Source of the DNA: a virus
Taxonomy: Duplodnaviria; Caudoviricetes
Reading direction: 5' to 3' (one strand)
Virus record (IMG/VR): IMGVR_UViG_3300032320_001881
Span: 1 to 64,000 of that record
Length of the DNA: 64,000 nucleotides
Below are positions 12,216-13,979 of this stretch, piece by piece; positions within the stretch are counted from its first letter, which is position 1; the number at the start of each line of letters is the position of its first letter. The position numbers and the translations under genes were made by a program. The notes under the pieces are model-generated. The model was not told the DNA's origin, did no database searches, and worked only from the letters and a program-made list of their open reading frames with translations.

Positions 12216-13979
12216 TTATGCTGTCTCAATATCTGTATTGTAACTAGTAAATCCACCCTCTTTAACTACCTTAAGTATGTTTTCTACACGGCCTGCTAGT
12301 TCGTCTCTATGGCTAACTAACCAAATACTCTTGTGACGTTCACGCGACATTTGTTTTAATAATGCTAGTGCTGACTCTACACCTTGTGTATCTAGCCCGT
12401 TGTCAATCATTTCATCGATAAACAATACATTGATTGGTGTATAAAGTGATTCAAACACATCTCTAAACGCCCAAGCCATACTTAAAATAAGTCTATTGCG
12501 TTCTCCGCGACTTAAATTATCAAAATCTAATTCACGCCCTAACTCTTCAATGCTTACAGTTAGATCATTTTGGAATACTACAGTATGTGGCAAACCAATG
12601 CGATCTAAATAATGTGTTAATCGAGCATTTAAATATGATAAGTTTTGTTCAATAATCTTTTTACGGATAAAACTATCCTTACTAGTAAGTAATTTAAGCA
12701 AAAACTCTTGATGTTCTTGTAATTTTGTTAACTCGTTTAGAGTATCGTAAGATATTTCTTCCAGTGCTTGATTAGTCATTTCATCAATTTGTTCAGCATA
12801 CGGGTCAATTTCTGCTTTTTTGCTGTTTATTTGTGTTACAAGTCCTTCGATAGTGGTACGATGTTGGATAGCATCTTCTTCTTTATCATAAAACATTTTT
12901 GGTGGCTTACCTAACACGCCCAAGGCTTCGAAGGCAATCTCCAATTCTGATAAGAGTTGTTTATGCTCTGCGAAATTTTTTCTAGCTCCATCCAAGTCTT
13001 CCTGTTTAGACGCCAGCACTGATTCGTGCTTCTCGTCATGGAAGGGTTGGCCGCATGTATGACATTGATGGGTTTTGAGAGTCTCGATTTCTTTTGATAC
13101 CTTGGAAATCGTCTTTTCCTCCCGTGTAATATCCAGTTTCGTGCGGCTGATCTGACCAGATAAATCGTTGATATCCTTCCTCTTCTGATCCCACGCTTTA
13201 TGATCCTTGTGTGCCTGGATCTCTTGTTCAATATTAATTTCCTGCAACGAGGATAAAGCCTTCTCAAGTTCTTTGATGTCATTGTCATGTTTAGTTTCCC
13301 ATAATCCTTGTCTGCGCTTTAAGGATTCAATTTGTTCTTGTATACGCTTATTAGCATCTTGTACAGCACGGATTCTAAATTCTTCTTTAGTGATATCTTC
13401 TTTAGTGGTTCGATTCAACTCTTTAATTTTTTCAGCTCGTTCAGACAACATAGTAATACCAAGCAACTGTTCGATAATAGTGCGCTGTTCATTAGACTTT
13501 AATGATAAAAATGGTTCAGTATAAGTGTTTAATGCCATAATATGCTTAAACATATCGTGACTCATACCCAATATGTTTTCAATAGCATCTTGCGTTTCAC
13601 GACTGTCGCCTTGGGCATTGTCGTCTGCTTCAGTTTCTTTGTTATCGATATAAAATTTTAATAAATTAGGTTTACGACCACGCTCAATTCTATAGTCCTG
13701 ATTATTAACAGTAAATTCTAAAGAAACTAACATATTTTTGCCGTTAGTTTTATTGACTAAGTTATCTTTACGGATATTGCTTAAAGCAGTACCATACATA
13801 GCATAACTTAAAGCGTTGATAATAGTAGTTTTACCAGTACCATTTCTGCTACCGTCGCCACCCAAATCCATATTTTCGCCTAATACTAATGTTAAATCTC
13901 GACGATCAAAGTTAATTCCTTGTGTAGCATTACCTACACTCATAAAATTTTTTACTGATAAATTCTTTATTTGGATCAT
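12216..13979 (-). CDS. gp46: Recombination endonuclease ATPase subunit (gp46 / SbcC / Rad50-like)
   Basis: Walker A NGTGKT, zinc hook CHTCGQ, signature LSRGE, Walker B LFIDE and H-loop VSH. Confidence 0.95.
   Translation of the reverse strand: MIQIKNLSVKNFMSVGNATQGINFDRRDLTLVLGENMDLGGDGSRNGTGKTTIINALSYAMYGTALSNIRKDNLVNKTNGKNMLVSLEFTVNNQDYRIERGRKPNLLKFYIDNKETEADDNAQGDSRETQDAIENILGMSHDMFKHIMALNTYTEPFLSLKSNEQRTIIEQLLGITMLSERAEKIKELNRTTKEDITKEEFRIRAVQDANKRIQEQIESLKRRQGLWETKHDNDIKELEKALSSLQEINIEQEIQAHKDHKAWDQKRKDINDLSGQISRTKLDITREEKTISKVSKEIETLKTHQCHTCGQPFHDEKHESVLASKQEDLDGARKNFAEHKQLLSELEIAFEALGVLGKPPKMFYDKEEDAIQHRTTIEGLVTQINSKKAEIDPYAEQIDEMTNQALEEISYDTLNELTKLQEHQEFLLKLLTSKDSFIRKKIIEQNLSYLNARLTHYLDRIGLPHTVVFQNDLTVSIEELGRELDFDNLSRGERNRLILSMAWAFRDVFESLYTPINVLFIDEMIDNGLDTQGVESALALLKQMSRERHKSIWLVSHRDELAGRVENILKVVKEGGFTSYNTDIETA
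12911..13288 (-). CDS. Possible overprinted Arg/Lys-rich protein in the +1 frame of gp46
   Basis: 125 stop-free codons that coincide with a sharp rise in G/C at gp46 third codon positions. Confidence 0.4.
   Translation of the reverse strand: MTMTSKNLRRLYPRCRKLILNKRSRHTRIIKRGIRRGRISTIYLVRSAARNWILHGRKRRFPRYQKKSRLSKPINVIHAANPSMTRSTNQCWRLNRKTWMELEKISQSINNSYQNWRLPSKPWAC

Follow-up and report, generated by a model that had tools for sequence, protein, structure and literature searches.

A second reading frame inside gp46

Does the gp46 gene of a large, uncultured tailed lake phage, which encodes a Rad50-like recombination ATPase, carry a second protein in a shifted frame? The question is raised by a stretch of 64,000 nucleotides (hereafter the window; 36% G+C), positions 1 to 64,000 of the IMG/VR virus record IMGVR_UViG_3300032320_001881, which comprises 102,993 bases and is estimated to be about 30% complete. 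A reading of these letters alone, hereafter the original prediction, had reported an open reading frame (ORF) of 125 codons on the same strand as gp46 and in its +1 frame, nested in the segment that encodes the coiled coil and zinc hook. We recovered this ORF with the same coordinates, strand and frame (Table 1). Comparison with homologous genomes indicates that it is very probably a genuine second gene under selection, overprinted in the coiled-coil/zinc-hook segment of gp46.

Within the window the nested ORF stands out by its length. A survey of the alternative same-strand frames within 36 long ORFs yielded 3,728 open stretches with a mean of 9 codons; the longest ORF had 125 codons and the runner-up 74. 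When the gp46 codons were redrawn from the usage of the flanks, 4-10 stops appeared in the +1 frame, as expected if that frame is normally full of stops, and when synonymous codons were shuffled within the region alone, zero stops were obtained in 1.2% of trials for the window and in 0-2.1% for 16 homologs. The shift towards G- and C-ending codons, estimated by hand in the original prediction at about 60 of 120, was borne out by a full count: 63 of the 126 codons from 231 to 356 end in G or C, corresponding to a G+C content at third codon positions (GC3) of 0.50 versus 0.24 in the rest of the gene, and a sliding 30-codon GC3 along gp46 tops out at 0.60. The predicted product is rich in arginine and lysine, as had been noted, with 22 Arg, 11 Lys, 2 Glu, no Asp and an isoelectric point (pI) of 12.0. 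A blastn search of the 378 nested bases against named phages returned no match, and the group of Pseudomonas jumbo phage PA5oct aligned in the gp46 flanks only.

The nested frame is conserved in two sister clades

Relatives were collected by four IMG/VR scans retaining the best 80 of about 600 relatives per query, which gave 259 loci. After removal of duplicates, 132 distinct gp46 sequences were kept: clade 1 (n = 115; 587-588 residues, 72-98% identical to the window gp46), clade 2 (n = 10; 589 residues, 67%) and outgroups (n = 7, including PA5oct; 48-53%). Their alignment is almost without gaps, and the clades consist of uncultured PA5oct-related jumbo phages represented by metagenomic assemblies.

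Homologs both near and remote keep the +1 frame open: it is intact in 100 of the 125 distinct ingroup sequences, at region nucleotide identities of 60-87% to the window. Ninety of the 115 clade 1 sequences are intact, with ATG and TAG at positions identical to those of the window and no internal stop; six others come close, flawed only by one or two stops or an altered start codon, and the remaining 19 contain 4-13 stops. All ten clade 2 sequences have the ORF at the same place, with a length of 125-129 codons. The ORF is absent from all seven outgroups, which have 6-18 stops there (18 in PA5oct, with a GC3 of 0.11). The other frames are closed in the ORF-bearing sequences, with a mean of 9.8 stops in the +2 frame and of 4-5 in the three antisense ones, and two control segments taken from these genes have means of 7.0 and 9.7 stops in their +1 frame. 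Mean pairwise identity of gp46 is 0.70 in the overlap, against an identity of about 0.8 to the window protein over the whole gene, in keeping with the proposal that the overlap occupies the most substitution-tolerant part of the protein.

The start codon follows the same pattern. ATG is kept in every intact homolog, and most ORF-less forms have ACA, ATA, GCA, ATT or ATC instead. His231 of gp46 is always encoded by CAT, which makes the nested ATG, although codons ending in C are preferred elsewhere in the region. Taken together, these alignments indicate that selection maintains the frame, the ATG and the stop of the nested ORF in both sister clades.

Synonymous sites of gp46 are constrained in the overlap

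The third positions of gp46 are the second positions of the nested ORF, as the original prediction had pointed out, and the synonymous variation of gp46 is suppressed inside the overlap, as it had proposed to check. Where the ORF is present, third-position diversity in the gp46 flanks is 0.50; it stays at 0.48-0.55 across the stretch encoding nested residues 1-82 and falls to 0.32 over residues 83-125, a segment for which ORF-less sequences give 0.59. Differences at fourfold-degenerate sites between pairs with a flank codon identity of 0.6-0.7 amount to 0.40 in the flanks, 0.25 in the part overlapping the nested N-terminal segment and 0.12 in the C-terminal part, and the corresponding values for the closest pairs are 0.28, 0.09 and 0.03. 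ORF-less pairs yield 0.41, 0.33 and 0.32. Suppression at fourfold sites is limited to the overlap and to ORF-bearing sequences.

Individual codons display the same behavior. Lys317 and His318 of gp46 are encoded by AAG and CAC in 90/90 intact clade 1 sequences, and AAA and CAT are commoner at these two sites in ORF-less forms. Codon 322 varies between TTG, CTG, ATG and GTG, so that the gp46 residue is Leu, Met or Val with nested W92 fixed; similarly, codon 326 is CAG, AAG or ACG with nested R96 fixed, and codons 329 and 353 are nearly always TTG or CTG. Seven nested residues, G33, S87, T88, N89, W92, R96 and W123, are invariant across both clades. These patterns indicate that purifying selection acts on the C-terminal 43 residues of the nested protein with about the same strength as on gp46, and that the N-terminal 82 residues are kept open and Arg-rich under a weaker constraint.

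One probable origin, repeated loss and relaxation of codon usage

In a tree restricted to the gp46 flanks and rooted on the seven outgroups, clade 2 was sister to clade 1 (Shimodaira-Hasegawa-like approximate likelihood ratio test supports of 98, 99 and 100). The ORF-less forms are nested in clade 1, where well-supported branches force at least five changes, a count that ignores recombination. Since the ORF is absent from the outgroups and the two ORF-bearing clades are sisters, the simplest history is a single origin at their base followed by repeated loss. The distribution points to an accessory gene, lost repeatedly while gp46 stayed intact, and because it was lost many times, the nested gene must be dispensable under some conditions.

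Copies at different stages of decay were found. In L160, the only change is that of ATG to ACG. One or two stops are found in L078, L022 and L191, where GC3 is still about 0.5, and in L109 and L076, which have four stops, GC3 is down to 0.37 from about 0.52. L109 and its intact relative L197 are 87% identical in the gp46 frame and 60% in the nested frame, and W92, W99 and W123 have all become stops in L109. More generally, region GC3 is 0.41-0.64 in ORF-bearing sequences while flank GC3 spans 0.23-0.57 (slope 0.31), and 0.14-0.37 in ORF-less ingroup sequences. The independence of region GC3 from the flanks and its drop after decay therefore effectively exclude a GC-rich donor patch and make the codon shift a consequence of the second frame. 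The GC3 rise is a by-product, as G at the nested second position specifies Arg and C specifies Ser, Thr or Pro; NTA and NTG codons before purines must also be avoided for the nested frame to stay free of stops.

Alternative explanations

Could the GC3-rich segment nevertheless be a patch recombined from a GC-richer relative, with the open +1 frame as a by-product? Phages of this group do recombine, and the coiled-coil region has diverged further than the flanks and appears mosaic in some of the sequences (in L019 and L043, nucleotide identity is 0.79-0.80 in the flank and 0.61 in the region). However, region GC3 stays within its range regardless of flank GC3 and falls to the flank level once the ORF has decayed, which contradicts this alternative, raised in the original prediction itself. 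Even with the region's own codons, zero stops are improbable (P <= 0.021), and composition cannot account for the conserved ATG and TAG or for nested residues that are fixed where gp46 varies. We consider such a patch very unlikely. The odds of an open frame arising by chance in Glu/Lys-rich coding sequence are negligible: the +1 frame of a GAA/AAG-rich coiled coil is naturally rich in Lys and Arg, and the equivalents in ORF-less genes have net charges of +15 to +30, but the comparative data refute this explanation, as control segments and ORF-less relatives carry 4-13 stops in the same frame.

Synonymous suppression alone does not say what is constrained, and a constraint on the gp46 mRNA or its translation, such as RNA structure or rare codons slowing ribosomes during folding of the hook, could leave the +1 frame untranslated; variability at gp46 codons 217-241 is indeed also lowered (0.71) in ORF-less sequences. 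However, the original prediction's suggestion of an RNA-level constraint gained no support from RNAalifold, which, applied to three parts of the overlap and compared with column shuffles, detected no significant conserved structure (z of -1.6, -1.1 and +0.3 for the three parts, and between -1.6 and +0.8 in all). Neither pausing nor structure predicts that stops are missing from one particular frame throughout 125 codons, that ATG and TAG are fixed, that charge is conserved, or that nested Trp and Arg residues are kept through non-synonymous changes in gp46, and lineages without the ORF have retained a functional gp46 while lacking the constraint. This explanation is thus improbable, and we hold programmed ribosomal frameshifting, by which a truncated gp46 head would be fused to a basic tail, to be quite unlikely as well. 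The latter would fit with the lack of a strong conserved Shine-Dalgarno (SD) sequence and with two database proteins, P0003 and P0004, that pass from the gp46 frame into the nested frame. These two proteins, however, switch at different places and look like assembly indels, and no conserved slippery site was found. Moreover, a +1-frame stop lies only two codons 5' of the ATG in many sequences, and the ATG, present in 90/90 intact clade 1 sequences, requires CAT at His231, in contrast to the uniform CAC at His318.

Several points weigh against a genuine second gene. All the sequences are metagenomic assemblies; no cultured phage carries the nested gene, and PA5oct, for which proteomics exist, lacks it. 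The middle of the nested protein shows no synonymous suppression at saturating distances, the deficit in the N-terminal part being seen in closer pairs. An OLGenie-like dNN/dNS, computed for the nested frame, came to 0.50 over its full length and 0.36 in the C-terminal part, and to 0.57-0.65 in ORF-less sequences; because these controls are also below 1, the statistic does not discriminate and was dropped as evidence. The SD-like motif is weak, varies among homologs and is partly forced by a conserved gp46 Trp codon, and the function proposed below is based on composition only. Nonetheless, the nested ORF has the features expected of an overprinted gene, namely its own start and stop, a conserved frame, synonymous constraint in the host frame and a narrower distribution than that frame. 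Dual coding in the Rad50-like gp46, as put forward in the original prediction, is thus supported by the open frame, by synonymous suppression confined to the overlap and by a GC3 rise that is not a donor patch.

The predicted nested protein

The nested protein falls into two parts (Table 1). Mean pairwise identity is 50% within clade 1, 71% within clade 2 and 34% between clades, and net charge ranges from +27 to +36 in clade 1 and from +24 to +32 in clade 2. Arg accounts for 18% of the residues, versus 5.8% in the equivalent frame of ORF-less genes. AlphaFold2 runs with 63 and 88 sequences gave a mean predicted local distance difference test score (pLDDT) of 57 and 55.5, an overall confidence too low to make a fold search meaningful, with residues 1-57 below 50 and the helix, which bears S87-T88-N89, W92, R96 and W99, at 78-81. 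W92, R96 and W99 share one predicted helix face with a spacing of i, i+4, i+7. In these models, predicted order coincides with the part under the strongest selection.

Profile searches of the nested protein against Pfam, PHROG and PDB returned no match (E up to 0.1-1), a word-indexed search of 5.8 billion proteins with the nested alignment found nothing, and the ESM Atlas gave no usable match. Among 1.84 billion representative proteins, the only matches were calls from the same locus: P0001 and P0002, which are clean and 125 residues long, and P0003 and P0004. The last two, which switch between the gp46 and nested frames (near the zinc hook in P0003), most likely as a result of assembly indels, are the only hint of a frameshifted product.

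Start, stop and translation signals

The original prediction had pointed to AAGGA and GGGA upstream of the nested ATG. Both are present, and the anti-SD duplex at the nested start has a free energy of -5.7 kcal/mol versus a mean of -3.3 for the window genes. Their weight as evidence is nevertheless weak and they are not conserved as such, since GGGA stems from a conserved gp46 Trp-Glu/Val and many homologs have TGGAC. Local RNA structure around the nested start is below average. A promoter and terminator scan and a TATAAATA search revealed nothing above chance near this start, and the TAA(A/G/C)TA leaderless pattern 7 nt before an ATG is absent there.

The codons around the start show a feature of their own. 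At gp46 codons 217-241 (window ~13257-13331, minus strand), just upstream of and across the nested start, synonymous variability is 0.71-0.78 of expectation; because it is reduced in ORF-bearing and ORF-less sequences alike, a constraint independent of the nested ORF acts there. In some GC-richer relatives, such as L054 (3488-4066), L055 and L056, the open +1 frame extends upstream beyond the nested start, and an ORF begun at an earlier ATG would have 162-193 codons; such upstream ATGs are not conserved. At the other end, the nested TAG (window 12911-12913, minus strand) is formed by a gp46 Leu codon TTA and the G of the next Gly codon, and is retained in 90/90 intact clade 1 sequences although the region otherwise favours G/C-ending codons.

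A possible role for the nested gene product

Translation of the nested gene would begin independently, through internal initiation on a gp47-gp46 mRNA at the conserved ATG, and yield a 15-kDa protein with a pI of 12. Its disordered, polycationic N-terminal part may bind nucleic acid, either DNA or RNA, while the amphipathic helix with its Trp-Arg-Trp face and the C-terminal PWA motif might confer specificity or bind a partner. As amino acid composition is what suggests it, we propose the nucleic-acid-binding function only tentatively. More doubtful is a de novo factor tied to Mre11/Rad50, as a partner that binds or protects DNA ends or a regulator produced from the shared mRNA at a fixed ratio, or else a host-takeover or anti-defence factor. 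If that reading were true, the locus would be among the best-resolved gene births by overprinting in a large double-stranded DNA virus, traceable codon by codon in more than 100 genomes.

The host gene and its neighbours

gp46 matches the SbcC-like PHROG 77 (E 2e-102) and the Pfam profiles AAA_23 and SMC_N, spanning residues 4-574. Tested for the hallmarks of Rad50, SbcC and T4 gp46, it conformed to them, with the N-terminal Walker A head and C-terminal signature/Walker B lobe, a long coiled coil bearing the CxxC zinc hook at its centre, and a neighbouring Mre11/SbcD-like nuclease gene. The nearest named phages are PA5oct and its relatives. The gp46 protein is 53% identical to the 'recombination endonuclease subunit' of PA5oct, and at the nucleotide level the PA5oct group shares 67% identity with the window gp46 at both gene ends, the middle being not alignable.

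The gp47 stop and the gp46 start share 4 nt (window 13976-13979). gp46 has no SD-like sequence (duplex free energy +1.8), as is the case for many genes of this phage, and the combination of this overlap with the missing SD suggests translational coupling to gp47. The SegE-type gene on the other side of gp46 occupies the same position in at least 151 of the 259 loci, with 80-95% identity among the top matches, and therefore behaves as a resident syntenic gene and not as a mobile homing endonuclease. Its best PHROG (447) reads 'NAD synthetase', a label that looks wrong. Elsewhere, a single ORF of about 5,130 codons (27735-43133, plus strand) is by far the longest in the window.

Table 1 Features of the gp46 locus, in window coordinates.
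Feature	Position	Strand	Description
Probable nested overprinted gene, 125 codons + TAG	12911-13288	minus	+1 frame of gp46, from gene offset 691
Nested start codon ATG	13286-13288	minus	from gp46 codons CAT-Gnn (His231 + Asp/Glu/Gly/Ala)
Nested residues 1-82	13043-13288	minus	net charge ~+25; weakly conserved sequence; residues 1-57 predicted disordered
Nested residues 83-125, conserved module	12914-13042	minus	predicted helix 82-107 and tail motif YQNxRLPxxPWA including W123
SD-like purine stretch	13297-13309	minus	AAGGA at -21 to -17 (13305-13309), GGGA at -12 to -9 (13297-13300)
gp46/SbcC/Rad50-like recombination ATPase	12216-13979	minus	587 residues; host gene
gp46 zinc-hook CxxC (C306-H-T-C309)	13053-13064	minus	inside the overlap, opposite nested residues ~75-79
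gp47/Mre11-like phosphoesterase	13976-14992	minus	Pfam Metallophos; directly upstream of gp46
SegE-type GIY-YIG gene	11744-12172	minus	Pfam PF19835, E 3e-31; directly downstream of gp46

Comparison with known systems

Overprinted nested phage genes are not new as a kind: Rz1 of lambda lies inside Rz in the +1 frame, and in phiX174 gene B lies in A and gene E in D, all on the same strand. Like these, the nested gene is small, complete and contained in an older gene on the same strand but in another frame; it has a start of its own and a taxonomically restricted distribution. Unlike them, it is hosted by a Rad50/SbcC-type ATPase gene, with an overlap that spans the coiled coil and zinc hook, and it resides in a jumbo-phage genome (103 kb in a record about 30% complete), so that genome compaction is unlikely to be the driver. 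No spanin-lipoprotein or lysis motif was seen in it, and it has no sequence similarity to the Rz1 and phiX174 genes.

A different resemblance is to the small basic proteins lambda N and HK022 Nun. Nun combines an arginine-rich motif at its N-terminus with a C-terminal region in which W108 contacts RNA polymerase (PMC5386594). The nested protein is likewise small (~110-125 residues for this class) and very basic, with a basic N-terminal part, and, like Nun, has an aromatic residue of the kind that is functionally critical in Nun a few positions from its C-terminus, here the invariant W123 in ...PWA-x. Unlike N and Nun, it matches no Pfam, PHROG or PDB profile, and we know of no nut/boxB-like target for it. 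The resemblance appears to be architectural only, a lead and not a result.

A full-text literature search retrieved general work on overlapping genes and none on a gene inside gp46/Rad50. Because gene callers forbid long same-strand overlaps, the nested gene is almost never annotated. Its presence would mean that an overlapping gene of considerable size can emerge and be kept in a jumbo phage with ample coding space, which speaks for overprinting as a source of new genes and not as a compaction device. It would also mean that, in these phages, changes that count as 'synonymous' in this part of gp46 are not neutral. The intact, freshly broken and long-decayed copies would thereby constitute a natural experiment on the way in which the codon usage of an essential gene is distorted by a second frame and relaxes again after its loss.

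A further parallel is with viral proteins born de novo in overlapping frames (Pavesi et al. 2018, PMC6195259; reviewed in Pavesi 2021, PMC8227390). As in those cases, the nested gene probably arose by overprinting and has a restricted distribution, and its product is largely predicted to be disordered, is accessory and is rich in residues of high codon degeneracy (Arg, Ser, Leu). By contrast with most proven cases, which come from small RNA or single-stranded DNA viruses, it is carried by a very large double-stranded DNA phage and is accompanied by a series of naturally occurring, independent losses in which the relaxation of codon usage is displayed.

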